A DNA stretch of 64,000 nt. It comes from Reclinomonas americana ATCC 50394 (lineage: Eukaryota). The position numbers were made by a program, and so were the translations under genes. The DNA lies in the NCBI GenBank assembly GCA_048213135.1, contig PS015061.1, positions 240,628 through 304,627 on the forward strand, given 5' to 3'. The notes under the pieces were generated by a model. It was not told the DNA's origin. It saw only the letters and a program-made list of their open reading frames with translations, and made no database searches. Below are positions 62-53,800 of the stretch, one piece after another. Each line of letters starts with the position of its first letter. Position 1 is the first letter of the stretch.

Positions 62-3000
62 TTACTCGGTCGCCTCGGAGAGGGCGCTGGCGCTGGCACT
101 CGGCACACCGCCGTCGCTCTTGCTGGCGTCCTGCAAATTATCAAAGCTGCTGGCGCGCCCACGCACTCGTTTCGGTGGTGTAAAGACCACGTCCTTGAGC
201 GAGTCCACAGCCTGGAGGAGGGGAGATTTAGCGGCGATCGCTCATCGTTCATCTATCCCGAGACTGGCGAAGAAGTTACCTTGTCGGCAATGCGACGGGC
301 AGCCTGTCGCCACCCAGCACCATCGACGGCTGCCGCGCACAAGAGTGAGAAACAGGGTGCGAACTACGCAGCAAAACCAACAAACAAAAAAATGCACACC
401 AGCTTGCTTCAGTCGCTTCCAGTTGTCTACCAACACGTCGAGCTTGAGCTTCTCCTCGATGAGGTTCTTCTTCTCTTTGAAGAACTGCTTCACCGGTCTG
501 ATGGTCTTGGTGTCCTGCAGCTTTCTCATCTGTGCGCAGCGGAAATGATGAACACTTTGCTGCCATTCCGTTTTCTTGCACCCGGCGGCACGCAACATTT
601 CTCTTCAACATCATGGCAATGCCACCGTCACGGCGCAACTCGTCTTGATAGATGCGATGCATGTGCGGACTGGTGATGATGAATGCCAAGTGAGTCAACA
701 ACGCACACGATGTGATGATGACATCGCATTGACTGGCCACGAAACGTTTCCACGACGCGATTGAACACGAGATGGCAGAAGTGGGCGAACAGAGCCATGA
801 AAAACACCGACCAACTGTTGGCCAACAGCGCAATCCCGTAGTAGCCGGAGAGTCCATACAGCGAGTCGGGATGGTTGAGATATCTACGACATAGGAGGAA
901 GGAGGGTGGCATGTTTCTTGAGTTGACGCGACAAACGGCAAGTGACGGCATCGGAGGCGACTCGAACCGGTAGATTCCCGTGTAGATGAGCTTCGGTGGC
1001 AACTCGGTGACAAAAAAGTCGCCATAGTACCTGCGTGGTGCAGCATGCGCCTTTTAGATTCCCTCGAGCACCACCTTCCTCTCTCTTCTCTGTCTTCTCT
1101 CACACACACCATCCAAACAGGCCGAGTGATTTGAGTGCCGACACGGAGCCCCACATATTGACGCCACACAGCAGCTGCATCAAAAAAAGCGCCGCAGTGA
1201 GGGAGTGTACGCACGCGCGCGTCAAACAATGATGGCAGCACACACAGCGCACCAAGCCAGCCAGAGCCTTCCACATGTAGCGCTGGTCCAGAATGTTGGC
1301 CGGGAACTCGGCATACGCCCAGGCGGCCACCACGAAAGAGATGCCGTTCATCGTAAAGGCAATGTTGTAGAGCATCTTCCACGTCTCGAAGGCGTCGCGA
1401 TTCGTCTTGCCCTCGGCTATGAAGCGCTTTGTCCACATGCGCTCCTTGCCCTGGTAGTACAACAGGAAGCCGAGTCCCAGTCCCGAGAACATGCGCCAAA
1501 ACACAAAGTTGCTGTGCGTTGCGCCAGAGTGAGCGCACAGCAGCAAAAGACACATAGTGGTGTGCCAGACGCAACGATAGCAGGAACCACTGCTGCACGG
1601 CCAGGGCACACAGCAGGAGATTGTAGGCCACCACAAACACCAGGCACAGGTCAGAGACTCGGGAGAGCGACAGGTTGAAGAGGAAGATGGACTCGCGCGG
1701 CGACGAAAAGTAGCCGTGTTGCGGATGATAGAGGATGCGCTCACGCTCCGACTCGACCTGCTGGTTGTCGGCGCCCATGGAACCATAAATCTTGTCCATG
1801 TCTGCTCTCATGCACACAGATAAGTGCGTGCTCTCCCAGAGAGTGGGGAACAGAAGACGAGCAAGCAACGCAACGAGGCTCCTCGACCACCATGAGGAAC
1901 ACAAAGTGGCAAAAGTGCACAAAGACGCCGACGTAGAACGGTTCGTACGACAGCGCAAAGAGTGGAGCGCCGTACACAAAGGCGTAGCTGAGGGGCACCA
2001 GCAGTGAGAATGGATGCCACTGTGGAATCTTATCAAACGCTGAGCCTCTCACACGCACCCGACAGTGTACATGGGGTGCGGGAACATTTGGAAGATGCCG
2101 TCGAAAATCAGCTCCTGGTCAATCTTGAAGAAGAAATCGCCCCAGTCTGCCGGAACGCACGCAGAATGAGCAAAACACGCACACAGATTACCTCCCCAAC
2201 ACCGCACACACTACGCAACACCAGGCAAAATCGCCGAGCACACGGTGCGCGTCGGTCTTGGCCCAGATACTGAGGACGCCGAGTGACAAACCCGACAACA
2301 TGATGCCAATGTCGCTGAGCGTCCACTCAGAGGCGGCCCAGCAGATGAACAGGATGCGGAAGACGTAGCAGGCGTACGACACAAAGTCCAGCACCAGCAC
2401 CAGATCCACAATGTAGCGGTAGGCCATCCAGGCGTTGAACTCGAGCGGATACGTGTCGAGCGTGACGGGAAATCCAAGCGATTTCGACAGCCACGACTCG
2501 AACGACGCACGGAACCGCGGCAAGCGTCGAGTGGCGGCATCAAACCACCGCTGAAACGCAAACGAGTTGGACTGGGCGTGCAAAATGTACCCAATGCCAG
2601 CATCGTACGCCAGCCGCCAGAAAATCGTCGAAATCAGAAACACCTGGGACGGCAAGCAACAACAACACAAAACAAACAAACAAACACGGAAAATATAAGC
2701 TGACTGACCAACACTGGTGATTGCTCCGACATGGATCGACTGTGACACTTGGCAACGACAATTCTTCACACAGCGCTCTCTCTCTCTCTCTGTACACGCG
2801 TGTACTGGGGACACACACACACACACACTCACCCACGACGGAGTCCGCGTGAAGAGCAGCGCAAACACATGACCGAGGGCCAACGCCACTGACAAGCCAA
2901 GCACCGGCGTCCATCGCGATGGCGAAAAGAGCGAGCTCATCACACTCGACGTCTTTGGCACACAGAACTCTGCGCGTAGGACCAACGGAGTTGAGACGTC

Positions 3001-3349
3001 CCGAGAGAACGAAAGGAAGACGAGTCATGTCCACACACACAGACAGACCAACACCACCAAAGGTGACGCCCACTGGCCGCGGCTCATCCGGTGCCTGTGG
3101 CGGCGGCTTTGGTGGAGCGAGCTTCTTACTGGGCACAACCATGACATTGTTGTTGCTGTCATCATCGTCTCCCACGTCGTCTTCGGCTTCGCCATGGCCG
3201 CCATGGTCGGCATGACTGGTCATCATCATGAGCGCGTGTGTGCTCTCGCAGCGACGAGGCGGAGCAGCTGCTGTTGTCTTGCCTGCTCCCGCAGCAGCAG
3301 CTGCCGGAGTGCGTCGCCGACGCGGTGGCGTGGTTGGCGCGGACGACAT
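62..3349 (-). CDS. CHO2: Phosphatidylethanolamine N-methyltransferase, fungal CHO2-type (two PEMT halves); about 13 exons
   Basis: Spliced motifs [64 protein letters not shown] and VVEEPHMDKIY. The second half has [19 protein letters not shown] and VVETPHM. Twelve GT-AG introns keep the frame to TAA at 62-64. Confidence 0.88.
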
Positions 3350-3527
3350 TACTTTTCTCGGGATCCCTCAAAGACAATAAGGGAGCGAGCACCTCCCGTC
3401 TGTCTCCAAATGTCCATTTGCACTTCGACGACGACAAGTGAGCGTCAGCTGTGTGTCTTCTTGGCACTCATTTTGTTCACTCGTCCTCCTCCCCCACGCA
3501 GCGCGTGAGAGTGTATCGCACACAAAC

Positions 3528-6500
3528 ATGCTCCGTGTGCTGTGCCCAGTTGCGTTTGCATGTGCGCGTGTGTGTGTGTGCGCGTGTGTGTGCATTTGAC
3601 AGTGCTGCGTGTGTAGGATGGAGAACAACTGGAGCTGGATGTTGCACCGCAGGCGGTGCTGGTGCGGAGGCTATTGGAGAAGTTCGGATCGACAAAGTTG
3701 GCGGGAGTGCCGCCGGAAGCCATCTCTGTGCATGTGTGTTTGCGTCTGTGCTCTCTGTTGTGTGTGTGCATTCGATCGTGGCTGATGCATGTGCATGTGT
3801 GTGTGTGTGTGTGTGTGCGTTGCAGCTTGTCGACGACTTGAGTCAGCCTCTGGATGAGGAGACGGCTCGTGTGTTGTTTGCTCAGTTGCCGGAGACTGGC
3901 CAGCGACGACTCGACTGCTGTGTGCAGTTTGACGAGAGCAAGGCATTACCTGCAGGCGAGTACGTGTCGATGTCCCATCGATTGCACGTTGCACTCACAT
4001 CCAACAGGCGTCGTTCGTCAATGGTCGCGGGAGGTCGTGTCGCACGACTATTTCGTGATCCAGCCGCCAGATACGAGTATGATGGGTACGTTGGGCGTGT
4101 GGCATCGACTGCTGCTGGTGAGCTCGTCTCACTCGGGAAGTCTGACACAGGCTCGGGTGTGCTGAAGTATGATCCGGTGTTGGTGTCGTGTGAGTTCATC
4201 GACAACTCGATCGAGCACATCACAGTCGGGGAGCACGCGCGCGGAGAAGGACGTGTGTTACTGACGTGGAATGTGGAGGATGAGGTGCGATGGCATGTGC
4301 CGCTGTGCACTGCGGCGCTGGTTGTTGTTGTTGATGATGAAGGGTGATGGATGTAGGATGCGTCAGTGTCCATTCGTGACAACGGGTGTGGCATGGACAG
4401 TCGCAGCATGGCTACGTTTTTCCGCCTCGCCTATTCGGCTGCGCTGAACTCGCGTGGCGGCGAGTTCGGCAGCCACTCGCGTTTTCTGTTCATCTCCTCG
4501 ATGTATTCGATGTATGGTGTCGGTGCCAAGGTTTGTGCAGAACGTGTTATATGTTGTGCGCTGCAACATGCGAATGACCATTGGTAACGCAGTTTGCCGC
4601 CACCGAGATCGGTGAGCGACTTGCGATGCAGTCGTCACGCGGTGGTGGCATTGCATGCACCGGTGTCGTCGACAAGCAGCTGCTGCACGAATCCGGCACG
4701 TGGCAGTTCAAGGTGCAATACACGAGCACTGAGCGGCTCGAGTCCTACACCGAGGCCACCATCAGTCAGTTGACAAAGAATGCTGTCGAATCCATGAGGC
4801 ACTACGTCGACGAGGACAACCGTAAGCTGTGCGAAACCATCGCGCACATTTACTATCCGCTGGTATGCACTCTTCGCCCATGTCATTGCATTCCGTGCGA
4901 TGAAATTATAACTTTGCAGCGGTGCAGATCTTTTCCTGGTCGCGACTGATTCCTGTCAACAAGGTGGCCAGGCTCGAGGACCTTGCGCAGTTGCACGCTG
5001 TCATCTTCAGCTTCTTTCCCGACCTCCCACCTGCCAGTGTGTTTGCGACTGAGGACGGTGTGGACGGTGGTGAAGGTGAGTTTGCGCGTACCACAGGTTT
5101 TCTTATTGTTTGTGTGATTGTCACACACACTTGAGCAGCGGCTCGATCCTCCGATCGAGAGGGATCGGCAGAAGTTTCTCGTAGCACCCGTGCTCGGAAG
5201 GATGACGGTGCGGAGGATTCCAGGAAAATGCTGCTGCTGCGTCAGATGCCAGCAGTGGTGACAGTTGCGTTTCGCGCAGTGTGTGCTTCAGGACGATGCG
5301 AACTCACAGCCTCTCTTTGCTTGTGAATTCAGCAACAAGAGCAAAATCTCTCGTTTGCAATCAACCGTTACCTGCTAAGAGAGGTCGATGCCGTGCAGCC
5401 TCTGTACGACACGCTGCTGTTCACGCGTGCCGCCTCTGTCAAGTGCTTCCGCATGTGTATACGTGACGGTGACAAAACGGCTCATTTGGTGGTTAGTAGT
5501 AGCACGTTTGGTAGCTGCTTGTCGCAGTAACTTACCGCCCTTGGAATGTGCGCGTGCAGGTTGTCCTCGGCTATTTCCCCATCACACTCGGGCAGGAGAC
5601 GATGCCCGAACATCCTTTCACCGGCAGAGCCGAGTGTGGTGTCGACATTCGCTGGATGGGTCGCTTGCTGTGCGGAGAGCGCTGTTTGCAGCTTCCGTGG
5701 ATCTTTCCGCGACGCAAGCTGTCGCAGCGCTTGCTGAATCGCGTTCGTGGCACGCTGTATCTGGTGCGTCTTGTCTTGCAATGTGCAGCAAGCAGCGCGT
5801 TTGTGACTTGTATAACTTGTGCTTTGCTGATTGCAGGACGAGAATTTCGCCCCGCAACAAAACAAGAATCTGCTCGACCCGGTCTCCAAGTTTACCACGG
5901 CACTGAAGGACGGCAACCTCTGTGATATGCCGCTGCGCATCTTCAACTTGAGGATGGTGGACGAAGTTGCCCCGCAGCTCGGCAAGGTACATGAATCGAG
6001 CATCACGGCGAAGGAGCTGACAGAGCAAATCTTGGACTGGGTTGAGTACGCGAGCCAGTCGTTCGACATGGATGTTGCGTGCGGTACCCCACGATGTCAT
6101 GGTTGCCTCATTTTGCGCTCATTCTCCTGTTATTGTGGGCAGATTACTCTCCACAAGGATGACTATATTGTTGGCAATGGAGAGATGCTACTCTATCGAG
6201 CCGCCACCGTGTATGGCAAGAGATTCCACCAGTTCGAGTACATCCACTGGGAGGAAAACAGCTACTTCATGATCGCCTACTTTGTGGAGAAGAACTGGGA
6301 TATACAAATTCTCGGTGATGAGCCCAACGACTGCTTGCGTGAGTTCGCTCCGGAATCTGTTGGGTTTGCTGTTGGGGGGAACCATTCACATTGTGTTGTT
6401 TTCGTGTTGCAGGTGTCGCGTTGTTGCCCGTCAACAGTCCACAGCAAGTGGAAGCGCTCAGTAAGGAGAAGACTCCGCCGCACCAGTGGGCGGCGAGCAC

Positions 6501-9500
6501 GTTGCAGATTCTGCCGGTCCGCGTCGTGTTTGGCGACTTGCGTAGTGGCGTTCAAGCGAGAATCGACAAGTTTGGACCTTTCCTCCGCAATGTCGTGACG
6601 CGAAAACTGTTGCGTCTTGTCCTTGCACAACCGTCATGCTGTCTGTGCTGCATGTTCATCTCTGCTTGCAGCCAAGCAATGTTGGAAAAGGCGCCTGTAC
6701 GACACGCAAGCTTGGTCTGTGATGAGAAATTCTGGGAGGCGTGTCGCTTGGCAGTGGCCGATCAGGACGATGTTCCAAAAGAGGACGACGCGGTGAGCAG
6801 CATAGTCACAGCGCCTCTGCGTTAGCAGTTACTTACAGTGATGTGGTGGTTGCAATCGTGCAGGAGCTGGAGGCCAGCGGTGTTCGCGAGCTCGCAACAA
6901 GCACTGAACTCGTGCGCCCCGTCGGATTCAGAGTGCCGTGGGACTGGATGCGGATCATCGCTGTTTCACGTGCTGGCAAGGTTTGTACGTTTGTGCCGTC
7001 CGTGGAGTCGCTCTCTGTCGCTAAAGCAAGCGGCTGCTAGGCTTGTCCCGATGCCAAGTTCAACGCCGAATTCAAGATGTACCTGACAGAAGCTGGCGAG
7101 CACGAGCGAAAAGTTGTGTTTCGTGATGATTGTCCATTGAATCCCCGTCACTGACGTGGTGATTCGACAGGTATTCTACGAGAGAACGAACCAGAAGCTG
7201 AAAACGTACAAGTTTGCCGATTTCTCGGTCACCAACATGAAGTTGGAGAAGGTCGGCAGATACGATTTCGAGTTTTCCAGCAAGGATCTTGATCCGTTCT
7301 GCTTTAGCGTGACAACTGAGCCTGGTGAGTTTGTCGAGTCACGACAGTGCAATCTCGCGCGACGCCACCATTCTCACTCCACGCACTAGGAAACCTCTGC
7401 AAGTTGCTTGTCAGTGGCGGCAACGTGGAAGTCGGTCAGAGTACGACCTTTGTTGTGCACGGAATCGACTCGGAAGACATTCCTGTCCGCATCCGTGAGA
7501 CCGACATTTTGTCACTGGAACTCCAGTCTCATCTGGTTGGTGGCTACGCCACAATGCATTGTGTGCCTTCTCTGAACGTTCTCACCCTGCCGCGCAGCGT
7601 CGCAAGATTGAGTTCTCGTACACCATAAACGTGGGCGAGGATACGTTGCCCCTCGGTGCCAAGGTGTCGGTGAAGGGGCGACCGAAGTTGCCGTCGCTCC
7701 GCATTCTGTTGACACCAACTGGGCGCTTTGTTGGCGATGACCAGCGTTTCGTCCTCATGCTGCTGCGTGTTGTGACGCAGGCAGGCTGTGCTTTCTTACA
7801 AACATCGTAACGTGCAGCGTCGTCGGATGTGCTCGGCAAAGCAACACTGTTTATCCGCTATGGTGAGAATCGAAAGGAGAAAGTCGGCTTTGAGCTCAGA
7901 CAAGGTTTTTGACGCCGGTGGTTGTCACTTTTCTCTTCTTTGGTATGCTGACGTGCTCCGCGTGACACAAGGTCCTCCTGCTCGTGTGGTGCTGTCTGTG
8001 GACTCGGTCACCGTCTACGACGGTGCGCAGCCGGACGACGACATCAGTGCAGAGGTTGCTGCATTGACTTGCTGCCGACATGTTGTTGCAGTCCACTGAC
8101 TGTGTACATGCAGGTTCTCGATGCGGCAGGCACACGTGTCGTCACGCAGCCCGTACAGCTCACGCTGCACGCCGTTGGTGGCCGTCGCGTTCTAATCGCC
8201 CCGAATGTAACCGTAGATACAGATGACGGCTACTGTGCCAGCCTGCAGCAGCACGTGACAGTTTTGTGGCGATGACCTTCTCCTGCGATGTGTGTGCGTG
8301 TACTATGATTCTAATTACACAAACAACAGCTACACCCGGATTTCTGGGGCACAGCTGTGATTCGTGTGCAAGTCGCTGGCCGCGCGGACATCGCAGCCGA
8401 CCTGACTGTCCGTCGGCTACAATCCTCATTGGTCGTGGAGCCGTGTGAGGCACTGGAGCCACTGCCCCGTGGGGAAGCCAAGTCGCGCCACCCCCTGAAG
8501 TTGTGGGGCGTGTCAGGTTCGGAGATCGAGTGCACCATGCGGCGATGTGCTGAGGACGGGACTCTGTTGCTGTCAAAAGTGTTGTACTATTCAACAGCAG
8601 TCATTCCTGCGTGCTATGCTGCTGACTTTTGTGTCTGTGGCACGCAGTTCAGCGTCAAACTTCCTGGCGTGCGAGGAACGACTGCGAGTGATGATGACGG
8701 CATCTGCCGTGTGCACGTACGGCTGCCGAAAGAGGCTCGCAAACGTGTCGCCACAGATGTTAGTTTCAAAACTGTTCGCTGACATTGTCATCTCTGCAGC
8801 TTGGTGCCGCCACGATTCCAGTAACGCTGCGGTTTTCCGACTCGTCGACGAGGGAGGAAGAGGTGCCTGTGCTGTGCTTTGTCGGTCAGCCGACAAAAAT
8901 CGCCAGCATCACGATTCCCCAAGATGTGCACATTGGTTGCCCGTTCGACGTGGCTCTGCGAGTCACCGACGAACACAACAACGACATCCCCGCGGCAAAA
9001 TTGACGCGCAACGCTGTGCGTCTCGAGTTTGTCGATGCCGGCGAAGTCAGAGTGTCGCCGAATCGACAAGTCAATGCCTTCGATCAGCTCTTCTTTACCT
9101 GTGAGATTCAGCGCATGGAACTGGATGGTGCTTTGCGTCGGCGAGCCGCCTGTGTTGCTTATCTCGAGCCAGCCGTGCGTTCCGCGAGTTCTGCTTGTTT
9201 TTGCGTTGCATTCTCTGATGTCTCGGTGCGCTCTGCAGGCCCGAGGAGGCGCCGGTTCTGCTGAGATTCGTGAGAGTCGCGATTTTTGCGTGGTGGCAGG
9301 TTTGTGCCTGTTAGTGCCTGTCGAATCCCACCACTGCAGCACTGCAGTCCTAACTCTTCATAATGCAGGGAAACCTAGTGTCATCAAAATCGAGCTGCTC
9401 GGCGGTGGCCGTGCCGAGGTTTGTGATGGGATCTCAGCAAGTGAGACCATTATGGATGCCTGACTTGCGGTTGTGTCGCACAGGAGGAGCAACCGGCAGT

Positions 9501-13326: not shown

Positions 13327-16221
13327 ATGGCAGCATCCCATCCAGTGGGCGTTCCACTGCCACCAGCACCACCACAAATACCATCGCTGCCATCCATGGC
13401 CAGCCCGCCTCAGCAGCAAGCACCGCCGATCAGTGTCACGCACTCGTCGTCCTCGTCTTCCGCTGCACCACCCGCATCCAACCCCGCCACTGCCGCTGCC
13501 TCGGCCGCTGCAGCCGCTGCAGCCGCCGCAGCCGCCGCCGCCTCGTCGGTGGTCACTCCCACCTCAGCGTTAACTGCGGCCCCGACCATCTCCGTGCTCG
13601 TTGTCGTCTCCTCCTCGCGTGGCCAGCAAGTCGTGCTGCAGTATCCGCCACCACAGGAACCGGCGAGTGGCACCGCCGCAGATGCCGGCACTGCCTCGTC
13701 TGCCTCTGTGCCTGCCAACTCGGCGTCCGCCACCGTCACCGCCGCTGCGTCTGCGACACCCACACCACCTCCGCAACAACAGGCTCCTGCTGCTCCTCCT
13801 CCGCCCCTCACACTCGGGAACGGTGGAGGCGCTGCGTCGGCGGGAGAAGGCGCAGGCGATGGTGATGGTCTGTCTCGCTGCTCTTGTCTGTGTGTGTGTG
13901 TGTGTGCGTGCATCTCTCATCTGTGAGCAGATCATCTGCGCGGACGACGGCATGCTCGACATGCGACGACGGGCTCGAGCTCGCTGCCGTCGGCCTCTGC
14001 TGCGCCGCTGTTGCTGGGCACGGGTGGAGGACCACCGCCGCGGAGAGCCATGCCGGTGACAGTCGATGTTGCGTTGCCCGTGTGGTGTTGTTATTGGTGC
14101 AATCGTCGACTGATCGGCATGTATGTGTGCGTGTGGCAGTCGCCTCTGCCTCAGGACGACGTGCCTGGTGCGTGGTTGGACTCGTCCATGTCACCCAGTC
14201 CATCGCCGTCGCCGGGTGCCTCGCCACTGGTGCCGTCCACGCCCGGCCGAGCCACTGGCTCCTCCCTGTCGCAGAATTCATCGCTCCCACCGCCTTCATC
14301 GACGGCGGCCTCGTCGGCGTCGGCTGTCACCGCTGCAGCCAGCGCCGGTGGTGCGGTGGCAGGTGCTGCCTCGTCTTCTGTGGCGCCTTCGACGTCGTCG
14401 CGACCTGTTAATCTGTCGGCTGTTGCGTGTGGACAGCGAAGGATGTGTTTGTGCGTTGTGCGCTGATTGTCGTGCGCTGCAGACGTCGTTGGACTTGATC
14501 TTTGGCTTGCCTTCGTCGGCCATGTCTGGTCTCCTGTGTCCATCCAAGTCCGCTCTCCTGATGGGCCAGTCGGGGGGCGCTCAGCCGCGTGGTCACATGC
14601 TGCGAATGGAATCACTGATCTTTTTCTGCCTGCCGAGCTCGCTGAAACCGGCTCGCAACGCTCCATCGACCGACATTACGCACTACTCGCTCGTGCTGGC
14701 GTTCCCTCTCCGGCAGTCGCGTGTCCTTTCGGCATCGCTGCGTGCCAACACGAGCCCCGTGCGCGAGATTGCCGAGCGCTACACCAACGTACTCACCTTG
14801 ATTCGCGAGGCACTGCTGCGAGAGCAGATGCGCTGCAACTTTGTGCTGGAGGAGCTCAAGCTGTTGACCACGATTCACGATTCGCACTCGTCGTGGCCTG
14901 CGGTCGTCGAGCACGCACTGGCCAAGAGCGAGTTGGCGCGCGAGTTGGCCGTTTTCCACCGCGTGAGTACAACTCGTCGACGCACGGCTTGTCTCGTGCG
15001 CCACACTTGCCTGACTTTGCGCGTACGCAGTGCCTGTCGGATTCCAATGCCGTGCATCTCGCCGTGAATAACTGGGTTCCGCTGTCGCTGAGATTACCGC
15101 GGCCACTTGATTTCGGTCCACCACGGCCGACTGTCGTGCATGGCGATGGCGGTCTTCACGGCGTGCAGCCACACCTGGCGGTGCTGCTGGAGGACGGTGC
15201 CGCGGAGTTCATGGCGCAGCTCAAGTGCTGCACGCCGATTGTGAAGAAGCTGGTGTCGACTCTGATTCCCTTTCGCACCCTGCAAGAGGTTTGGCACTGA
15301 GCTCATCCTCGTGCTCGTGCGAGTTGAACGGGGGAGCACTCAACTAGGTTGGCGCACACAGCTGGCGACCGAGAACGAGACCAGCGTGGACACCATGTGC
15401 GCTCTCGCTGCACATTTGCGGTACTGGGGACTGGCGCGTCTGTTGACTCGAGTGTCGCGCAACACGCGGTTCCGAGTGGACGGATCGGCGTATGGCGGTG
15501 AAGTGTATCGCATGTTGCACGCGGAGCGTGAACCTGGCGAGGTTGGTGTCGCAGTCGTGGCACTTCTTCCTCTCCCCCTGTTGACGCTGATCCACTCGAT
15601 GTGAGCAGTTTCAGCGGCGATTCTCACGCCTCAACTGGCCGCTCAGTCGCACGCTGCAGCGCTTCTCGGTGACCACGCACTGGATCTTTCACGATCTCTC
15701 GCTCGAACAATTCAACGAGCTGCAAGAGGTGATGTGGTGGCCTCCCTCATCTCTTTTACGTATATGCGTGTGTGCGTCGCTCACTCCTGTTTGCACTCGC
15801 GTGGCAGGCGGTCGTGTGGCTGCTCCAGCGACAGCTGATTCGCCCGGTGTACCGCTACGTGCAGATGCTGTCGAACGACGACGACGACGACATGGACGAC
15901 CATCAGCACGACCCGTACATGCACGTACACCACCACCACCATCACCACCATCACCATCGTCAACGGCACCACCACCACCATCATCACCACCACCATCACG
16001 AGCACCATCATCGACAACGACCACATTTTCATGCACGACCACCTCGGGACTTCCAGCAAGTTGCCGACGCCGATGCCGAGACCTTCCTGCGCCTCAAGCC
16101 GTTCTTCACGGGCGAGTACTCCGTGGACGACATCCTGGCGCAGGTGCATCTGTCGCCAGACGACTTTGAGCGCATCCTCGACACCTATCGCGACCTGCTC
16201 GTGCAGTACGACTTGCAGTGA
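13327..16221 (+). CDS. NPRL3: GATOR1 subunit NPRL3/Npr3 with low-complexity inserts and a poly-His tract
   Basis: ISVLVVVSSSRGQQVVLQYPP (longin start), ALLREQMRCNFVLEE, KSELARELA, VHLAVNNWV, LAAHLRYWGLAR, VVWLLQRQLI and FLRLKPFFTGEYSVDDI. Confidence 0.85.
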
Positions 16222-19283: not shown

Positions 19284-19622
19284 GGTTGCAAACACTGTGT
19301 GTTTCATTGATTGGGCGTCTGCACTTTTATTTCATCTCGTTGCTTGCGACTTCTGCGCAAAAGTTCCTCTCTCTCTCCCGCCACATTGAGCGTGCGTGAG
19401 AAGAGCACAGAGCAGCGCGCTCATGTCGGCACCAGCTGTTGCGTCTTGCGTTTTGTGTGCAATGTCGCGCTTACTTTTGCCTCACTCTCACTCTCTTGTT
19501 CCTCTGCACGCGCGTGTTAGGGACGTGATGGTATTGCGTGTGTGCATGCATGTGTGTGTGTGTGCGTGTGTGTTCTGTCTCATTGTGTGTGCGCGCGCAC
19601 AGGGAATCGCCATGAAGATCGG

Positions 19623-21234: not shown

Positions 21235-23292
21235 ATGGAGCTCAGCTTCTCTGACGCCGTCGCCGGCGGCAGTGACACGTGTGCTGTGTCACCCGATGGC
21301 AAGTTCATCGCCGCCTGCGCCAAGTACAAGCTGATTGTGCGCGATGTCGACAAGCTGGAGGTGTGTTTGCACTGTGGGAGAGAGCGAGGGAGAGAGACTG
21401 ACACACTCTGCATGCCCGCAGATCATTGCACTGTGGCAGTGCGACGACGCCATTCGGCGACTGGAGTGGTCGTGCGACTCCAAGTACATTCTGTGTGGCC
21501 AGTACAAGCGCGGTCTTGTGCAGGTGAAGACAGTCACTCTCTCACACACTCATACCGCCCTGCTGGCCTCACTCACTCACATGTGCACAGGTGTTCTCAC
21601 TGGAGGATCCCACATGGAACTGCCGCATCGATGAGGGACCAGCGGGTCTCACGCACTCACGATGGAGCCCTGATGGACGTCACATTCTCAACGTTGCAGA
21701 CTTCCAGGTGTGCATACACTGCGGGTGAGACTGTGCGTATGTGCATGAGTGAGTGCTCACGCGACGCACAGTTGCGAGTCAGCGTGTGGAGTCTCCTGGA
21801 CAAGTCGGTGCGATACATTCAGTATCCCAAGTTCTCTTCGCACGGTGCGTGTGTGCCTCGAAGACTAGATGGGAGACAGCCAGTGAGTGTGTTGGTGGTG
21901 AGAGAAGTGTTGATCTCGTGTGCCACAGGTCTCGATTTCTCACCCAATGGCGAGTACATGGCGCTTGCCAAGCGACAAGACTGCAAGGATTTCGTCGGTA
22001 TCGTGTCGACAAAGACGTGGGATGTGGTCAACGTTGCGCGTTCTTGGTGTGGGCGCGCGCGCGCGTTGTAGTGGTCAGCTCTCTCACCGCGTAGCCACAG
22101 ACATTCAATGTCGAGACGCGTGACCTGGCCGACTTGCGATGGAGCCCCGACGGTTCTTCGATTTGCGTGTGGGACACAGTGCTGGAGTATCGCATTCTGG
22201 TGTACTTGATGAATGGAACGCGTGTGGCGCGCTATGCGGCCTACGAGGATGCGCTGGGCATCAAGAACATTGCGTGGAGTCCGTCACTGAAGTTGCTGGC
22301 GATCGGCAGCTACGACCACAAGGTGCGCAAATCCCATCGTCGCCCCGCCCGTTCGTGTCTGCCTGGACTGACGTGTGTTTGTGTGTGTTGTTTCCAGATT
22401 CGCGTGCTTAACAACGTCTCATGGAAGCCGCTGGCAGAACTGGAGCACACTCCGACGGCGGTGCCCTCAACTGCAGTTGGGCGCCACACATATACTTATG
22501 TATGTCTGGGTGTGTGTGCTTACTCTCGTGCCCTGTCGCAGATGATTTTCCGTGAGCAAGAAAGAGCTGCACCCCCGGAGAGCGCATTCCTCGCCGGTGA
22601 CGCGCCGGAGTCTTCGGCTCCGACAACAAGCACGGAATGTTTGTGTGCACCACTACTTGCCCGACAAAAAATACCGAATGCTTGCTATTGTTGACGATTC
22701 CTCCTGTGCAGACGTCATTGATTCCTCGCCAGCTGCGCTGCGGCTCCGGGAGGTGCAGGCCGACAAGGTGTTGTCGCGCCTTGGTGTCGGTACTCTGTTG
22801 TGGAGCCCAGACGCCCGCTTGCTGTGCGCCAGAAACGGTTTGCACGTTTGTATGGGGGTGCTCGATATTGGGGTACTCAACAGCGAGCTGTTCGCGAACG
22901 CAGACAACATGCCTGAAGCTGTCTGGGTGTGGGATATGACCACACTCACACTGCTGGCGGTGCTCGTTCACTTGGCGCCAGTGAGGAGCATGTCATGGGA
23001 CCCCATCGCTCGAGAGGGTCGCCACCGCCTTGCGCTGTGTGCCGGCGGACCGCGTGTGTACCTGTGGACCGAGGAAGCGGCGACATGCGTCGACCTGCCC
23101 GAGAGTTGCGTTTGTGTGCCACGTGTATGCACGGTAGCTGAAAGCGGCGATCATCTAATCGCATCGCATGTGTGCTGCTTGCGGCGAGCAGCTTCCATCA
23201 GTGCACAGGAAGTGGCGTGGGGTCCGGACGGTCGCCATTTTTCCATTGCAGATCGCGAACGATTCTGCCTGTGTTACACAGACGGCTCGTGA
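21235..23292 (+). CDS. WRAP73: WD repeat protein WRAP73/WDR8 (centriolar); about 11 exons
   Basis: [102 protein letters not shown] and [10 protein letters not shown]. Confidence 0.92.
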
Positions 23293-32364: not shown

Positions 32365-32410
<46 letters not shown>

Positions 32411-35536: not shown

Positions 35537-39420
<3,884 letters not shown>

Positions 39421-43800: not shown

Positions 43801-46800
43801 ATGAGCGCTGGAGGAGTGCCTGCCTCTCCGGCATCCTCTTCTGCCTCCACAGGAGCTGCCTCGGCCACACCCGTAGTCGCCGCCGCAGTGGAGCCCGTCC
43901 TGCTGCGCAAGCTGGGCGTGACTGCGCCCTGTGACTCCGAAGTCACCGCAGTGGCGTTGCTGGCCTCGGGCGGAGTCGTCATGGGCACGCGTCACGGAAA
44001 GATGGTCTACTGGAGGTACTCTCGCTCATTTTTGCGGTTACCGTTTATCCATATGTAGCTCACCTGTCTCTCCCACCAACAGTGACGCATCATCGTCGGT
44101 TCCGTATGAGTTTGACGGCCACTCGCGTGCGATTAGCGATCTGGCGGTGCACGCGGATGGACGGACGCTGTACGCGGCCTCGCTCGATGGCACCGTCTCT
44201 GCGTGGGATCTCGCCACGTGTCGCATGCGTCTGCGCAAGCGAGTCGCCTCGGAGAACGCGCCACCGACGACGCCCACCTCTGCTGGAGGCGATGAGCAAC
44301 AGACGGACTTGTCGGCGTCGCCGGCGGTGCTGGGCATTGCGGTGTCGCCCGATGGCAATGTCGTGGCCACGGGTAGCGCCGACAAGAAGGTCCGCATCTT
44401 TGATATCATGCTGCAGGCCGAGGGCGCCATGGATGCCGGCGAGGCCATGCGGCGTCTGGAGCTGCACAAGACGCTCGGGGCGCACACGGGCGATGTGAAT
44501 CATGTGCGCTTCTCGCCAGTGGGCGGCAGCTCGGCGCTGCTGGCGTCGGCCTCGCGCGATGGAACGCTGCGCATTTGGGATCCGGTCAATGGCGAGTCGT
44601 TGGCGCGTATTGCGCAGATGCCCGAGGGAAACTTTGGCGGTCTGTCGTGGTCGCCCGATGGGCGCAAGGTGGCCGTGGCCTCGCGCACGGGCACGTTTTC
44701 GGTGCTCATTTTCGATGTGGACACGAGCATGTGTGAGCATGTGTGCCGTGGCCACACGGCGCCGGTGCATGACTGCGCGTGGTCGCCGAACGGGCGCTTC
44801 CTGCTGTCGGTGTCGGACGATCGCACGGCGCGCCTGTGGGACGCCTACACGGGCCAATCGCTGCACACGTTCCGCGACTATGATGCGCCTGTGCGTGCGC
44901 TGGCGTGGTCGCCGGACAGCGCCTTCTTTGCCACGTCGACGGATCGCTCGGTCGTGCAGTACGCCGTGTCGTTTGTGCCGCAGGTCGAGTTTGTGCCGAT
45001 TGCCGGTGCCGGCTCGCTCTGTGTCTTGCGCTGGTCCAAGCCGTCACCGGTGGCCAGCCTCCGCCTCGTGCACATTGCACCGTCGGCCTCGGATTCCATG
45101 CGCTGTTGCGTGCCTCTTGTAATGTCTTTTTCCCTCTATTTCTCTTCGCTCACATGTATCACAGACATCGAGTCGTCGTCGTTTATCGCGGCCGAAGGCG
45201 AGGGCGTGGGACCGTTTGAGGCGTGTGTCGTGTGGCTGGAGGAAGCCGGCCCGCACACATTCCGCCTGGAGACGCGGTGGCGTGACGGTCCAGCCGACGC
45301 GCCGTGGATGGCCACGTCGGCGGTGACGGTGGAGAGCACCGGCTGCGCCACCTTTGATCTGCGCCTCGACAGCGTTGCCGCCTTCTCGGCCAAGGTCGCG
45401 TGGGATGCGTCGTTGATTCGCGCCATTCAGGAGCAGGCTCCGTGGGTCATGCGCTCGCTGCGCCTCGACATGACGGTGCACTGCGCGCCGTCCACTCGCC
45501 ACATGACGGAGAACCGCACGGCACCGCTGTTTATGCTGCCGCCGGTTATGCTCTCGGACCAGCAGGTGGCACAGGGCCACTGGCAAGTGGAGGGTCTGCT
45601 GCCGTCGCAGCAGTACAAGTTGCACGCTCGCCTGCTGCTGGTCGGTGGCACACTGGTGTGCGCCCAGTCGCTGGTGTTGCAGACGGGTCATCTCGGTGAG
45701 TCTCTCTCTTTCTTTGATCCATTCTTTGTGTTGTTTTCTCATCACCCTCCCCTCGCTAGAATCACAACTCGCACAGACGACGTGCGACGCGCTGCTCCGC
45801 GAGTTCAGCACCGACACGGTGGCCGACGCGCTGATGGCCGTGCCGACTGCACGCAACTCGAACCGCCGCCGCGGCTCGACCGTCCCCGGCAGCCTCGATG
45901 GTGACGCGCCTGCGGAGGATGCAGTGCCGTCGACCATTCAGCAGCTGCGTCGCGCGCTGGAGGAGTTGGCGGCGCTGACATCGCGTCACACGCCGACGCC
46001 GCTGCGCGAGCGCGTGGTGGAGATTGCCAGTTCGTTTGCGCACCTGGTGGGTGGAGTGGACGAGCGCGACGGCGAGCTGCGCCAGACGCGCATCGAGCAG
46101 GCGTCACGCGCCCTCATCCTCCTCCGTCGTCACATTGCCGAGCTCGGCAATGAGGCTGTCGGCTTTGGCCAGGCTCTGGCCACTCTGGCCGACGCCGACG
46201 AGTTGCTTCGCCAGGCTCGTGCCGAGGCCGACACCGCGCGTGAGCGCCGTCTGCCCGAGTCGCACCGCGACGCGCTGGAGGTCGAGGCCTTCCGCCGCAC
46301 CGACGCCCGCCTGTTGGCCTCCGACGCCGTGATTGCGGTGTCGCGCCTGGAGGCCATGGCGGACTGGGCCAAGGACACGAACGGTCTGCGTGCTGCCGAG
46401 TGGACGCAGTTGGAGGAGGAGTGCCGTCGCGAGGCGTCGGGAGCACGCGAGGAAGCGGAGCGCGCCGGACGCACGGTGGTGGCCGCCGAGGTGCGCGTGC
46501 AGCAGGCACGTGCCGAGGCCGAGGAGGAGTACCTGGAGCTGCAGCGTCGGCTGGAGGTGAATCGCGTCCGTCGCGAGTGCCTGGCGGGCGTGCACGCGCA
46601 GCTGTCGGGTCACAAGATCCGCTTGCACAAGGCGGAGCGCGATCTGCGCGAGCACGTCACGTTCTTGGAGCGCATTGCCGAGCTGCCGAAGTGGTTCTCG
46701 GAGCGCGCCCGCGCAGCTGCTCTCGTTGGCCTCAACCAGTGCAAGCAGTGGCGCCAGGAGGAGGAGGACGGCGGGCGACCGGCGACGGTGCGCGCCGAGT

Positions 46801-47951: not shown

Positions 47952-49344
47952 TTAGAGCTTGTCGAGTGACTCGGTGGTCTGGCGCACCACTTGCGAGTGG
48001 CCATACTGCGCCACGTCGACGCCCTCAGCCTTCTCCGCCTCCACCTTCTCGATGATCCAGTCGTAGGTCCTGCGCAGGCCGTCGACGAGGGTGATGCCGG
48101 GCGCCCAGCCAAGCACCTCCTTGATCAGCGTGTTGTCCGAGTTGCGGCCACGCACACCCTCCGGGCCGGGGATGTGGCGGATCGGCAGCTCACGCTCGCC
48201 AAACGAACATGCCATCCTGGCCATCTCGTTCATCGACACCATCTCGTCGGAGCCAATGTTCAGCGGCTTCTTGTAGTCCGATCTGCAACCGAGGGGTGAG
48301 GAGGGGATGTGTGGGGAATGGCATGTGATGAAAGCAAACGCACCGCATGAGGCGCAGAATGCCCTCCACGCAGTCGTCAATGAAGCAGAACGAGCGAGTC
48401 TGCTCGCCGTCGCCCCACATCTCAAAGTAGTCGGTTGAGCAAATGGCCTTGCGGCAGAACGCAGCAGGGGCCTTCTCGCGACCGCCCTTCCACGTGCCGT
48501 GCGGGCCGTAGATGTTGTGGAAGCGGGCAATGCGCGTCTCCTGCGTAGCGAGAGAGATGTGCGTGAGCGGAAGAGAGAGAGGCAGAGAGATGGTGAATGG
48601 AAGCGACGCAACAATCGGGAAGTCGTTGGCGTAGTGCATCGCGAGCTCCTCCATGGCGAGCTTCTCCAGGCCGTAGGCGTCCTGTGGGCGCGCTGGCCAT
48701 GCATCGGCCTCCTTAAGGCCCGGGTTGGCCGAGTCCTGATGGGATGGCAAGAAGGTGAGTTATGGGGGAAGGGAGGGAGAGGGGAGGGAGAGGGAAGGGA
48801 GAGAAGAGGGAGAACAGGAGACATGAAAAAGACGAGTGAGGGAGAGAGGCTAGGCAGTACCTCCTGCTTGTCCTCCGGGTAGATGCAAGCCGACGAGGCG
48901 TAGAACATGCGCTTCACACCATTGCGGCGGCACGACTCCATCACGTTGAAGTCGCACACTGTGTTGTTGTACAGAATGACCGAGTGGTTGCTTTGGATGA
49001 AGCCCATCTGCACAATGAAGTAAGAGTGAGTGAGCGGAAGAGAAAGAGAGGCGAGGGAGGAGAACGAGGACGAAACTCCACCCATGTCGGCAGCCAAGTG
49101 GAACACCCAATCGCAGCCCTGAGTCGCGCGCAGGCAGTTCTCGAGTCTGTGACAGAACGAGAGAATCGTCAGTGATGGAGGAGGACGGATGAAGGGCGAA
49201 GAGAGGGAGGTGCGAAGAGAGGGAGGGAGGAAGGGAGAGAGAGAGGAGAGGGAAAGGAGAGACGGAGAGAGTGAGTGGAATGAGTGAGTATGAGAGCGAG
49301 TGAATGAGGTGCGATTGAGTATGAGGAATGAGAGAGAGAGAGAG

Positions 49345-49411
<67 letters not shown>

Positions 49412-49861
49412 ATGAGAGAGAGAATCGTCAATGATCATGCAGAGTGCCATGTGTGCATGCATGCGTGGCGACGCAACGTGCGCAGATCCAACAAGAGGAA
49501 CTCGTCGCAGAACTCGGACTTCTCAAAGTACTGTGTGAGAGAAAGAGAGAGCACGTGAGCACACGTGATCAAGATCCATCAACAGAGTGAAACGACTCGC
49601 ACGCAACCTCCTGCTCCTTCCAGTCAGCACCAATCACGTGGTGGCCCTCCGCCTTCAGACGGCGAGAGAGGTGACCACCAATGAAACCACCGGCACCAGT
49701 CTGCAAAGGAGAGAGAGAAGGAGGGAGAGAGTGAGGAGTGATGCTCATGCGCGCATGTTGCACGCGCCCCACACGCGTCCACTCTTCTGCGTGTGTGTGC
49801 GTTTGCTCTTGTGTGTGTGTGGGCGTGTGTGTGTGTCGGTACGCACCACGCAGATCTTCAT
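47952..49861 (-). CDS. GME: GDP-D-mannose 3',5'-epimerase; 8 exons
   Basis: TGAGGFIGGHL, VFHLAADMGGMGFIQSNHSVILYNN, YASSACIYPE, PQDAYGLEKL, WKGGREKAPAAFCRK and HIPGPEGVRGRNSDNTLI are GME-specific motifs. Confidence 0.95.
49331..49410. repeat. (GA)n(GT)n microsatellite in a GME intron
   Basis: Directly visible. Confidence 0.95.
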
Positions 49862-50852
49862 GTTGGATGATGAGTTGGTTGAGGAGAGGGGGGGATAGCA
49901 AGCGCGCGCGAGAGTCGCGTAAAATATCGTAAATCGGATGGATTGAGCGGCGTTTTTACGAAACGGCTGCGTAAGAAACATGCAAAGATTCTCGGGCATT
50001 TGGCGGCCGGGTCGGGTGTCAGTGGTGAGTAAATCGCGCGCTGTTGTGGGTGCCTGGTGTCTCGAGCACCACAGCTGCAGCTTCGATCATGCATGATCGT
50101 GAGCTCCAAGACCGGCTGCAGGCGATTCCAATCTCCGTGTATGGTGCACCTGTGTGCAACTGGAATGCAAGCATGGATTGTTGCATCGGCAGGTGGGGGC
50201 CCATTGTCGTCTCTTCTGCATTCTCAAGAGATATCGATGTTCGGAAAAATTCGGTGCCTGTGCACCGGCTGCGAGGTCCACTCAGCGGCATGGAAGATCT
50301 CACTCCTCGTCAACATGTACGCGGAGCAACGCACAGACGCTGCAGCTGATCGATTGGTTCAGGATATCGATGTTCGGATCCGGTGAAATCGGTTCGGTGT
50401 CGAATTCGTTCCGCGATCGGCGTCGCTTGCGAAGTCCGTGGGAAGGGCGGCAAGATGTTCGAGACAAACTGTGTGGTGAACTGCATCAAGTGCTCTCGAG
50501 CCGTTTAGCAGCGACTGGAGCGTTGCGAGGAACGAAAGGAAATCGGGTATCTGCACGCTGGGTTTACAGCAACGCCTCGATAAGCAAGTCCAGATCAGCG
50601 CTTCGAACCCATCTGGCCTCGGATAGTTGCGCAAAAGCCAACAGCTGCACATGGGCTTGCAGAACCGTCGACGCGTCGCCTTGCGCTGGATTATCGAATT
50701 CGAAACTCGACGTTTGAAACCTTCGCAGCCCGAGCCGTCGCGTAAAAACTCATGAAGTACATGCACACGTGCAAGTTTCCACAAGTCCCTTGACAAAGCG
50801 CAGCAAATAGAACTTCGTACTTGCCGGAGGACGAACATTTTCGTCGGTATCG

Positions 50853-53800
50853 ATGTCCGTCTCCCTTCCCCCCCACTCTCACATGAGCCACCTGCTCTCC
50901 TTTGTGGAGGGCCTCCTGCGTGGCCGAGTAGACGAGGTCACTCTCCACTCCCCTCTCTCTCAAGAAAAAACATGCATTTCCCCGCGCTGCTCACTGCCTC
51001 TCTCCTGCCCCCTCCACACACACACACACACACACAGATCGACCTGCGCAACAGCGGCCTCACCGACCGTGACGCTCGCGACATTGCTGCTCTCCTTGGC
51101 AAGTACCAACAAACAGCAACACCACGCGAGTTCCGCCTCAATGGTAAGTCACTACACTGGAAGTCTCAATCTCTCACACATGCACACACACACTCTCACG
51201 CACGCACTCCACACATCAGTGAACCAGATCGGCCCCGAAGGTACTCGCGCACTGGCTCTTGTCATGAGTCGCGTGGAACGACTGCACCTGGCTCGTTGCG
51301 TGACACACACTCTCACTCGCGCGCACTCACTCTCACTCTCTCTCTCTCTCACACACAGAGAATCGCTGTGGAGTTGAGGGCGCGCGATGTCTCGGCAAGT
51401 ACTGTCGCCAGCTGACACTGCTCAATGTCACAAGTTTCGCCTGCGAGTGAGAGAGTGAGAGAGTGAGAAACAACAACGATCAACGATGATATTCACCGCA
51501 CACTGGTGCAGACTGTGATATCGGTGATCAGGGATGTGCGGCGATCGCCACTGGGTGCACACAATTGGGCACGTTGATTGTGGCAGGTGCGTCTTTAGCT
51601 CTCTCTCTCTCTCGCGGTCGTTGTGTGGGCGACACTGAGGGCGATTGTTTGTGCAGGGAATGGAATCACAAAGATTGGCGCAGCGGCCATGGCAGCTGCC
51701 TCGTCGGCGCTGCATACACTGGACGTGTCGAGTTGTGTTTCTCACGTGCGCGCACACTGTGTTCTCTCATCTGTCTGACGTGGTTGTTGTCGGTGTCGGT
51801 GTCGCAGAGAACCCGCTTGGTGTCGATGGTGCCAGAGGTATGTGAAGGCTGCATGATGGTGGCGTCGACATTTCTGACCCGCGCTTTGTTGTGTTGCAGC
51901 ACTGGCTGGTGGGCTCCCGGCACTGACGTGGCTCGATGTGTCGCGTTGCGTGCCTGGTCGTGCGACTGCATTTCAAGTTTTTTTGTGGGAACTCATCTCG
52001 TTTCGCAGAGACTGCGCTGGGCGATGCCGGCGCTGCTGCGATTGCCCAGTTCGCCACGCTCACTTGCCTGAGAATAACTAGTTGAGTTGACAGTGATTGG
52101 TGGACGAGTGCGTATCGCATCTCTCCTTCGCTGTGTTGCCCTCGCGATGTCCCTCTCGCTGTGTCATTCTCCCTGTGTCGCTGTCGCTGCGTCACTCTCG
52201 TTGTGTCGCTCTCGCTGTGTCACTTTTACTGTGTCATTCTCGCTGTGTCGCTCTAGCTGCGTCACTCTCGCCGTGTCGCTCATCGCTGTGTCGCTCATCG
52301 CTGTGTCGCTCATCGCTGTGTCCCTCTCGCTGTGTCACTCTCGCTCTGTGTCACTCTCGCTGTGTCGCTCTAGCTGCGTCGCTCTAGCTGTGTCGCTCAT
52401 CGCTTTGTCTCTCTCCTCACTGTGTCTCTCTCCTCACTATGTCGCTCATCGCTGTGTCGCTCTCCTCACTGTGTCGCTCATCGCCGTGTCGCTCATCGCT
52501 GTGTCGCTCATCGCCGTGTCGCTCATCGCCGTGTCGCTCTCGCTATGTCTCTCTCCTCACTATGTCGCTCATCGCTGTGTCGCTCTCCTCACTGTGTCGC
52601 TCATCGCTGTGTCGCTCATCGCTGTGTCGCTCATCGCTGTGTCGCTCATCGCTATGTCGCTCTCGCTGTATCGCTCTCGCTGTGTCACTCTCGCTGTGTC
52701 GCTCTCGCTGTGTCGCTCATCGCTGTGTCACTCATCGCTGTGTCACTCATCGCTGTGTCGCTCATCGCTGTGTTGCTCTCGCTGTGTTGTTTATTGATGT
52801 GTCGCTCTCGCTATGTCGCTCTCCTCACCGTGTCGCTTTCGCTGTGCCGATTTCGCTGCGTCGCTCTTCTCGCTGTGTCGCTCTTCTCGCTGTGTCATAC
52901 TCGTTGTATCGCTCTCGCTACGTCGCTCTTCTCACTCACTCTCTTCCTGTGGACTTACTCCTCTTCTCCATTCTCGCTCTCCTTTTCCATCCTCACCCTC
53001 CACCACCTCCCCCAGAAAACGACTTGAGCACGGACGCCTGCGAAGCCATCTCGTCGGGATGCCCGATGCTCACTGAATTGTGGTTGTCGGCCAACCCAGC
53101 AATCGGCGTCGGTGGCCTGTTGCGTGTGCCCAGCTTTCCATCGGCCGTGTTGACAACTGACTTCTCCTGCATAGAGCGGCAATCAGCGAACGGTGTCGCG
53201 AGTTGACCACACTGCGAGTGTGTCGTTGCGTCTCATGCCTCCCTTCTTTTGATCTTGTCTCCACATTCTTGACTCCCCATCGTCGCGCAGACTGCCAGCT
53301 GGACACGGCAGCAGTGGATGCGCTCTGTGGACTGTCTTTACTGCAGTCGTTGGATGTCACTGGTGCAGAAATAATCACTCTTTGCTGCCACCAACCTCGC
53401 CTGGCAGTCTCATTCTTTTCCGCAGGCAATCCTCTCGGCAACAGTGGTGCTCAGCGGATCGCCACGATATCCTCGCTCACCGAACTGAATGTGTCGGAGA
53501 TCAGCATGGGTGCTGCTGGTGCCAAGGCGATTGCAGAGGGATGCGGGCAGCTCACATCGTTGACCACGACTGGTTTGTTGATGCATCTACACGCTATTGC
53601 GAGAGTAGTGATAGCGAGCTACACAACCTGTTGTTGCGATCTCACGCCTTCCCTTTCTCAACGTCGCTGCTACGAGTCTCCGTTCTTTTGTCTCGTGTTA
53701 TCTGTCTTTCCACCTTCATGTTTCCACTTATTGTGGATCACACTCTCGTTTCCTGTCTCCTCTCGTCTCACTCACAGTTTCTCTCGCATCTACCTCCATT

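Follow-up and report, generated by a model that had tools for sequence, protein, structure and literature searches.

The stretch analysed here is 64,000 nucleotides (nt) of Reclinomonas americana ATCC 50394 (assembly GCA_048213135.1, contig PS015061.1, positions 240,628 to 304,627 of the forward strand), called the window below. The DNA is nuclear and eukaryotic, has a G+C content of about 57% and includes four runs of N; its genes are densely packed and contain many short GT-AG introns each. Our subject is the 5' splice site, or donor, of these introns, which occurs in two classes. A preliminary description had proposed that the last base of the exon predicts the class, G being followed by a standard donor and any other base by a shifted one, and that the shifted donors are the standard motif paired one base downstream with the U1 small nuclear RNA. 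In what follows a donor is shifted when it has T at +3 and G at +6 of the intron, standard when it is not shifted and has G at +5, and other in the remaining cases. A slash marks the cut, with the last exon base (position -1) in lower case before it. The evidence base consisted of the 64 kb of sequence and of protein homologues.

The introns were called with a gene finder composed of a three-periodic Markov coding score, an acceptor matrix, a branch-site matrix and an intron composition score that skipped the first 8 intron bases. Donors were scored by a two-class matrix covering intron positions +3 to +8 only and no exon base at all, and exon bases entered the procedure solely through the general coding score. 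The 13 introns of the CHO2 gene served as the seed of the donor matrices, which were then re-estimated on the model's own calls. The final version gave 25 genes with 152 N-free introns, all of them GT-AG. Several other variants were discarded: a sparse order-3 model gave just 5 genes, a non-coding model retrained on the leftovers or a per-base bonus chained the whole strand as one gene, a search on GT and AG only with a weak coding model placed the boundaries imprecisely, and one intron penalty was too harsh. Intron signals by themselves were too low in selectivity to serve as an intron caller. The uncorrected set contained 84 standard and 40 shifted donors. Two of its calls in a leucine-rich-repeat (LRR) gene, at 53633 and 52668, were probably wrong and were swapped for 53363 and 53573, giving a corrected set of the same size with 86 standard, 39 shifted and 27 other donors. 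The calls were then compared with homologues of three conserved genes, retrieved by single exons, which covered 26 introns. The automatic models were exact at 22 of these, and the misses fell in the standard and other classes, none in the shifted class; all ten shifted donors within the three genes yielded gap-free junctions or conserved residues.

The first of the checked genes, CHO2 (phosphatidylethanolamine N-methyltransferase; 62..3349, minus strand), was traced by hand. Its 14 exons translate to one open protein of 738 residues, and its 13 introns comprise 8 with standard donors, g/GTAACT counted in, and 5 with shifted donors. The trace reproduced the donors listed in the preliminary description, in which seven standard donors all follow exon G (GTCTGT, GTGAGT, GTGCGT, GTGCGC, GTGTGT, GTGTGC and GTAACT) and five shifted donors all follow T or C. 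The hand model was gap-free at 12 of 13 junctions against the closest homologue (P0241, 55% identity over the query exon), and the thirteenth, that of the intron at 596, adjoins a 3-residue indel in a variable region; the automatic model found 11 of the 13 introns. From the hand trace and the homologues, the shifted donors are t/GTTGCGT at 590..596, beside the indel, c/GTTTCGT at 739..745, c/GTTGCGT at 1569..1575, c/GTTGCGT at 1868..1874, whose junction yields the conserved EEP-H-MDKIYG, and t/GTTGCGT at 2213..2219, whose junction yields the conserved GDFAW-Y-WGDFFF. The earlier list lacked one intron, that of g/GTTCGA at 967 (84 nt, 884-967), which is in-frame and stop-free, and its removal restores the conserved GIYR-YLNHP.

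The GDP-mannose 3,5-epimerase gene (47952..49999, minus strand) has 7 introns, and all 7 junctions aligned without gaps to homologues, whose identity reached 77%. Its donors are g/GTGCGT, g/GTTGCGT, c/GTTGCGT, a/GTTTCGT, g/GTACTG, t/GTTGCGT and g/GTGCGT. The four shifted ones, all placed by homology, are t/GTTGCGT at 48606..48612, a/GTTTCGT at 49070..49076, c/GTTGCGT at 49471..49477 and, as an exception after G, g/GTTGCGT at 49601..49607. The third of these opens an intron of 331 nt (49147-49477) among introns of 61-146 nt; its junction was confirmed by homology, and long introns do exist here. ThyX, a bacterial-like FAD-dependent thymidylate synthase (58693..60391, minus strand), has 6 introns, all after exon G and five of the six after AG. 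The automatic model was gap-free at 4 of the 6 junctions and placed two donors 15 nt too far downstream, which gave 5-residue insertions; in-phase donors 15 nt upstream (g/GTAAGC at 59351 and g/GTACAT at 59071) remove them. One donor of this gene is shifted in spite of the G, g/GTTGCGT at 59771..59777, again placed by homology. The enzyme is closest to bacterial ones, the sole organism names among the exon matches being of the Planctomycetes type at about 70-75% identity. It looks like a transferred gene which gained its introns later, and the g/GTTGCGT intron at 59777 is presumably young.

The LRR gene (50883..53996, plus strand) was taken from the gene model and a reading of 53041-54240 by eye. 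After the two corrections made by eye, the donors of introns 2-13 are identical to those reported before: g/GTAAGT, c/GTTGCG, a/GTTTCG, g/GTGCGT, a/GTTGTG, g/GTATGT, c/GTTGCG, a/GTTGAG, t/GTTGCG, c/GTTGCG, g/GTGCAG and g/GTTTGT. The last two lie at 53363 (53363-53425, 63 nt, in frame) and at 53573. The shifted donors are c/GTTGCGT at 51295..51301, a/GTTTCGC at 51434..51440, a/GTTGTGT at 51732..51738, c/GTTGCGT at 51945..51951 and a/GTTGAGT at 52081..52087, as given by the gene model, and t/GTTGCGT at 53119..53125 and c/GTTGCGT at 53225..53231, as given by the model and the reading by eye. The acceptor belonging to a/GTTGAGT is uncertain, with tandem repeats in the intron. These repeats occupy 52081-53028, where the model translation reads VSLIAVSLIA and so on, and the stretch is less probably coding sequence than a single long intron. 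The 63-nt intron of this gene and the 84-nt intron of CHO2 are both stop-free multiples of three which gene finders read through; their status as introns comes from the repeat pattern in the LRR gene and from homology in CHO2.

Over the 152 introns of the corrected set, the base before the cut was G in 69 and another base in 17 standard donors, 4 and 35 shifted donors, and 11 and 16 other donors. For standard against shifted donors this gives an odds ratio of 35.5 (Fisher, p=6.4e-14). The association persisted across every variant tried. Expressed as G to non-G, standard versus shifted, the counts were 66/18 versus 4/36 in the uncorrected set (p=2.6e-13), 63/21 versus 4/31 with a second coding model (p=1e-10), 55/17 versus 2/28 in the introns outside the three checked genes (p=3e-11), 13/0 versus 2/8 in the 26 homology-checked introns (p=9e-5), and 63/13 versus 4/32 when only introns of 55-200 nt were kept and donors in GT repeats were removed. 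They were 47/11 versus 2/22 (p=7e-10) with the donor matrix switched off, a poor parse which recovers 6 of the 26 checked introns. Read from the exon, 69 of the 84 donors after G were standard, and the 68 donors after another base were divided into 35 shifted, 17 standard and 16 other. The association announced in the preliminary description is therefore real and strong, and the rule is a statistical one with exceptions. The exceptions named there were found again: g/GTTGCG at 49607 and 59777 have junctions without gaps against homologues, and standard donors after C are present in the gene models as c/GTGAGT (6339..6344, plus strand) and c/GTGCGT (9175..9180, plus strand).

What the last exon base contributes to each class can be seen by comparison with sites that carry the same motif but are not donors. 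G before GT is generally rare in this DNA. At GTTGCG it preceded 3 of 28 donors versus 5 of 43 non-donor sites, and it preceded 59 of 295 non-donor GTTNNG sites. At the standard-like motif it preceded 50 of 66 donors (76%) versus 197 of 1432 non-donors (14%). An expectation derived from codon position (13.6 of 40) was dropped, since it takes no account of how rare G is before GT overall, and the motif-matched background is the proper control. Thus selection for G at -1 is strong in the standard class, and in the shifted class, where its frequency equals that of the motif-matched background, G is neither selected for nor against. The proposal that the +1 G of the intron stands in for the -1 G of the exon seems to hold on these figures, with about 10% G, or background, in the shifted class. 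It would follow from the result at -1 that the exon ends of the shifted class are released from coding constraint. Intron phases are alike between the two classes.

The heptamer GTTGCGT dominates the shifted class (24 of 40 in the uncorrected set) and is over-represented in the window, where it occurs 33 times versus 15.3 expected, a count reached in none of 100 shuffles. In the original gene models 24 of the 33 sites serve as donors. The nine unused ones are at 3549, 11878, 14068 and 16511 on the plus strand and at 17672, 34048, 34375, 45857 and 58269 on the minus strand; some closely precede predicted start codons, or fall within a gene that earlier parses showed (16765-18956, minus strand). 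These nine sites may be missed introns.

Apart from the donor, the two classes are alike. Median intron length is 68 nt in the standard and 69 nt in the shifted class, and the base composition of the introns is the same. The acceptor is CAG in both, with C at -3 in 75 of 84 standard and 37 of 40 shifted introns, and both share the branch motif CTCAC, CTGAC or CTCAT, at a median distance from the acceptor of 20 nt (standard) and 19 nt (shifted). Introns of the U12 type have the donor RTATCCTT and the branch site TCCTTAAC close to the acceptor. The minor spliceosome was rejected as a source of the shifted class, in which the donor is GTTGCGT and the branch motif and its distance are as in standard introns. 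Mobile introns of the introner type were rejected as well: an all-against-all blastn of the 152 introns minus their first 9 nt gave 451 matches, and the 40 inspected were runs of simple repeats.

The two donor profiles resemble each other once one of them is moved by one base. The standard profile has A at -2 and G at -1, followed by G, T, G (T and A rarer), Y (A rarer), G, T, G and T. The shifted profile has background composition at -1, followed by G, T, T, G, C, G, T and, at +8, G or T. The free positions of the shifted donors were given scores under the profile of the standard class, with the numbering kept and with it moved by one base. The slide improved the log-likelihood by 272 nats and was better for 38 of the 40 shifted donors; positions -3 to -1 and +7 to +10 alone gave 76 nats. 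By chi-square, positions -1, +7 and +8 of the shifted class match standard -2, +6 and +7 (p=0.3, 0.54 and 0.35) and differ from the standard positions of the same number (p=6e-12, 3e-9 and 0.03). Like the two classes, the -1 association and the shared 3' signals, this displacement of the whole profile by one base was observed directly. In addition, G at -1 and G at +5 are positively associated over the 152 introns, with G to non-G at -1 of 69/18 in donors with +5 G versus 13/52 in those without (odds ratio 15, p=2.5e-13); +5 G was present in 69 of 82 donors after G and in 18 of 70 after another base. Such a positive link is expected if, in the second class, +1 G and +6 G act in place of -1 G and +5 G, and it makes sense only with +6 G as the working equivalent of +5 G. 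These statistics give good support to a single signal in two registers, and the second class is probably a common class of shifted-register donors.

We suggest the following mechanism. The GT-AG introns of the window would share one seven-base donor signal, G-[G/U]-U-G-Y-G-U (either base within the brackets), placed in two ways with respect to the cut, which would fall after the first G of the signal in the standard class (G/GUGYGU) and before it in the second (/GUUGCGU), to which about 26% of the introns belong. In this second class the +1 G of the intron would occupy the slot of the exon -1 G. The exon base at -1 of the second class would be unselected and of background composition because +1 G fills that slot. 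The same reader of the 5' splice site, the U1 5' end and then the AUAC/ACAGA region of U6, would bind one nucleotide further downstream, and the catalytic spliceosome would then cut at the first GU. We infer U1 and U6 as the readers, and pairing in the shifted register, from the sequence pattern. One donor signal in two positions, read by the same U1/U6 reader shifted by one nucleotide, is in our judgement an evenly balanced proposition. We hold more tentatively, at somewhat below even chances, that out-of-register recognition of the 5' splice site is here a main constitutive mode, serving about a quarter of the introns, maybe together with a second U1 or with a U1 whose 5' end has co-evolved.

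Several results weigh against this mechanism, and the most serious come from pairing energies. The pairing reference was the canonical U1 5' end (AUACUUACCUG, from a table in PMC4856993); Rfam found no U1 or U6 gene in the window, its only match being a tRNA-Ser. Standard donors form a duplex of -6.29 kcal/mol with canonical U1. The nearest-neighbour energy of the shifted class averaged -0.64 kcal/mol in register +1 versus -0.40 kcal/mol in register 0, with register +1 better in 15 of 40 donors, 21 ties at zero and 4 worse, and there is no stable duplex with canonical U1 in either register. The preliminary description had expected an energy gain in register +1 and had taken the lack of one as refuting its reading; the gain is almost nil, which comes close to that outcome. 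The shifted-register reading is partly supported: it is supported as to the motif, which looks like the standard one displaced by one base and not like another motif, and is not supported as to the gain in pairing energy. Complementary positions with canonical U1 did increase, to 6.47 of 11 in register +1 versus 4.12 of 11 in register 0 and in 36 of 40 donors, a gain which the class definition (+3 T and +6 G) partly builds in, by three pairs. Shifted position -2 also fits standard -3 poorly (p=0.04), and shifted +4 and +5 are sharper than standard +3 and +4, although in the same direction (p=0.009 and 1.5e-6). Finally, 126 of the 152 introns are supported by gene models alone, and such models were right at 22 of 26 introns where checked. 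Pairing of U1 in the shifted register is plausible but energetically weak under canonical U1.

One alternative is that a divergent or second U1, or another small nuclear RNA, reads GUUGCGU, the likeness to a slid standard motif being secondary. The organism's U1 might have an altered 5' end, for example one matching GC at the two middle positions, or there might be a variant U1 complementary to GUUGCGU. The near absence of pairing energy with canonical U1 in any register speaks for it, and so does the uniformity of the shifted class, in which GTTGCGT makes up 24 of 40 donors versus 17 of 84 for the top standard hexamer. At +4 the shifted donors have G in 32 of 40 cases, T in 8 and A in none, and at +5 they have C in 33 of the 40, a sharpness for which canonical U1, whose two pseudouridines lie opposite, fails to account. 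This leaves room for a divergent or second U1. Standard +4 favours pyrimidines (T 34 and C 27 of 84), where A would be expected opposite pseudouridine. A divergent form would run counter to the very wide conservation of the U1 5' end. Donors without +5 G carry +3 A in 6 of 11 cases with -1 G versus 2 of 16 without, which fits the canonical U at U1 position 6. A variant acting in the normal register with C opposite -1 predicts an enrichment of -1 G that is not present, and all the 3' signals are common to both classes. We consider this explanation unlikely.

A second alternative keeps the register unchanged and supposes an ordinary compensation between the exon side and the intron side, the stronger intron side happening to read GUUGCGU in a GC-rich genome. 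Two anticorrelated donor classes have been reported in plants and animals (PMC9803359, PMC11842720). Within the standard class compensation does operate, for 8 of its 17 donors after a base other than G are GTGCGT or GTGAGT and are thus enriched for the best hexamers. It accounts poorly for the shifted class, however: in the normal register GUUGCGU is a weaker intron side, with +3 U and with +5 C in 33 of 40, the association of -1 G with +5 G is positive (odds ratio 15), and the profile from -1 to +8 matches only after the slide by one base. The probability that we give to it is low.

In a third alternative U1 would pair normally with -1, +1 and +2, the U at +2 or +3 would be bulged and pairing would resume at +4. 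Bulge registers are established for human sites (PMC4856993), and from +4 onwards the intron side would be the same as in the shifted register. The two arrangements part at the exon. A bulged duplex keeps the -1 pair and predicts that -1 G is enriched at least as much as in standard donors, whereas G was seen in 4 of 39 against a background of 12-20%, and shifted -1 resembles standard -2, not standard -1. A bulge of this kind seems to us rather improbable. It is very improbable that miscalled GTTGCG donors or sequence context produced the association: although the models made errors (they were right at 22 of the 26 checked introns, and two further LRR calls were dropped) and this DNA generally has few G before GT, the ten shifted donors of the checked genes all hold up, donor choice was blind to exon bases, the association survives with the donor model switched off, GTTGCGT is in excess over every shuffle, and context accounts for the low G of the shifted class but not for the 76% of the standard class.

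Shifted donors occur elsewhere in the window as well, and those listed here come from the gene models. On the plus strand t/GTTGCGT is found at 6074..6080, 6609..6615, 14422..14428, 19438..19444 (in an intron of 165 nt) and 45105..45111, a/GTTGCGT at 5264..5270, 23105..23111 and 27691..27697, and c/GTTGCGT at 29472..29478. Variants on the same strand are c/GTTGCGC at 22033..22039, a/GTTGGGC at 22476..22482, a/GTTGCGA at 24439..24445, a/GTTGTGT at 7113..7119, c/GTTTCGT at 7746..7752, t/GTTTCGT at 30243..30249 and a/GTTTTGT at 8261..8267. The donor g/GTTTGGC at 15289..15295 fits the definition as a weak member, and t/GTTTTGA at 29130..29136, with an intron of 49 nt, is a call of low confidence. 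On the minus strand a further shifted donor after G, the exception g/GTTGCGT, lies at 35702..35708. A MAPEG-like gene (microsomal glutathione transferase 3-like; 31551-33065, minus strand) has a/GTTGCGC at 32012..32018, beside tiny exons and from the gene model only, and a/GTTGCGT at 32088..32094 and 32201..32207; its modelled exons of 14 and 7 nt lie between these three consecutive a/GTTGCG introns of 69-71 nt.

The plus-strand region 4393-11826 was modelled as two large genes (4393-7912 and 8108-11826) with 27 introns, supported by the gene model alone. Four exons of these two models had no match in Pfam, and an exon of the second had one weak match (E=2e-6) among 1.8 billion protein representatives. 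The region may be specific to the lineage and possibly forms just one gene. In the search for orthologues, a scan of metagenomes with a lineage-specific exon found zero relatives. The same scan with an epimerase exon found 80 loci, the best 69-74% identical and many on contigs of 1-2 kb, none of them near enough for a comparison of introns. At the end of the window a tRNA-Ser (GCT; 62227-62307, plus strand) lies between a predicted gene and a gene for a proteasome ATPase (Rpt-like), which is interrupted by a run of N and leaves the window.

Recognition in a register shifted by +1 has precedents. In such sites the cut stays at GU and all pairs of the U1 5' end lie one position downstream; the sites look as if one base were inserted after +2, and +1 G replaces -1 G (Roca and Krainer 2009, via PMC4856993 and PMC11162779). 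The shifted U1 register is established for individual human sites and a shifted U6 register has been proposed (PMC4856993, PMC11162779); the latter paper reports the shifted register for some human 5' splice sites. The donors described here are like them in that the cut is at GU, as in all our calls, and in that -1 G is not needed (4 of 39, equal to background); in a shifted register -1 G can be dispensed with because +1 G pairs with C9 of U1. Human +1 shifted sites have a long run of pairs, as in the test oligonucleotide AAGUAU with a predicted -6.5 kcal/mol (PMC4856993). Those of the window, known from sequence alone, make up 39 of 152 introns, read GUUGCGU and have almost no pairing energy with canonical U1. 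Shifted-register sites are rare in humans.

Dependence of donor type on the exon end is a known theme, to which the N6-methyladenosine (m6A) of U6 and the diversity of exon ends also belong (PMC8163875); here the motif, its sharpness, its share and the reversed sign between -1 and +5 differ. As in the AG//GU and //GURAG classes (PMC9803359) and the left- and right-handed sites of the work on LUC7 (PMC11842720), one class relies on the exon end and the other does not, so that the exon-end sequence is relaxed. Unlike //GURAG, which has a purine at +3, A at +4 and G at +5, the second class here has U at +3 (by definition), at +4 G in 32 and T in 8 of 40 donors, C at +5 in 33 of 40, and G at +6. 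In the window -1 G is anticorrelated with the GTTGCG motif but positively tied to +5 G. In the human "seesaw", -1 G and +5 G substitute for each other (Burge and Karlin in 1997 and Carmel et al. in 2004, cited in PMC9803359). The last exon base is statistically tied to intron positions in the window too, but the sign is reversed, with +5 G in 69 of 82 donors given -1 G versus 18 of 70 given another base. Registers with a bulge or an asymmetric loop (PMC4856993) are similar in that donor and U1 are aligned in a non-canonical way; they keep the -1 pair, and here there is no selection of -1 G. Among the best-ranked literature matches no paper describes a donor reading GTTGCG or GUUGCG.

For this organism the practical consequence is that gene finders with a single donor matrix will miss or misplace the GTTGCGT introns. 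If one signal is indeed placed in two registers, /GUUGCGU is G/GUGCGU slid by one base, and exons of that class would be wholly free of the requirement for G at their ends. Shifted and bulged U1 registers have been reported for only some human sites, each case needing mutational proof. A sharply defined GTTGCGT donor in about a quarter of the introns would be a natural system for the study of the handover from U1 to U6 with binding and cutting offset by one base. The same system would address how far donor recognition is a matter of base pairing, canonical U1 pairing poorly here, and how donor type and the coding sequence at exon ends evolve jointly.

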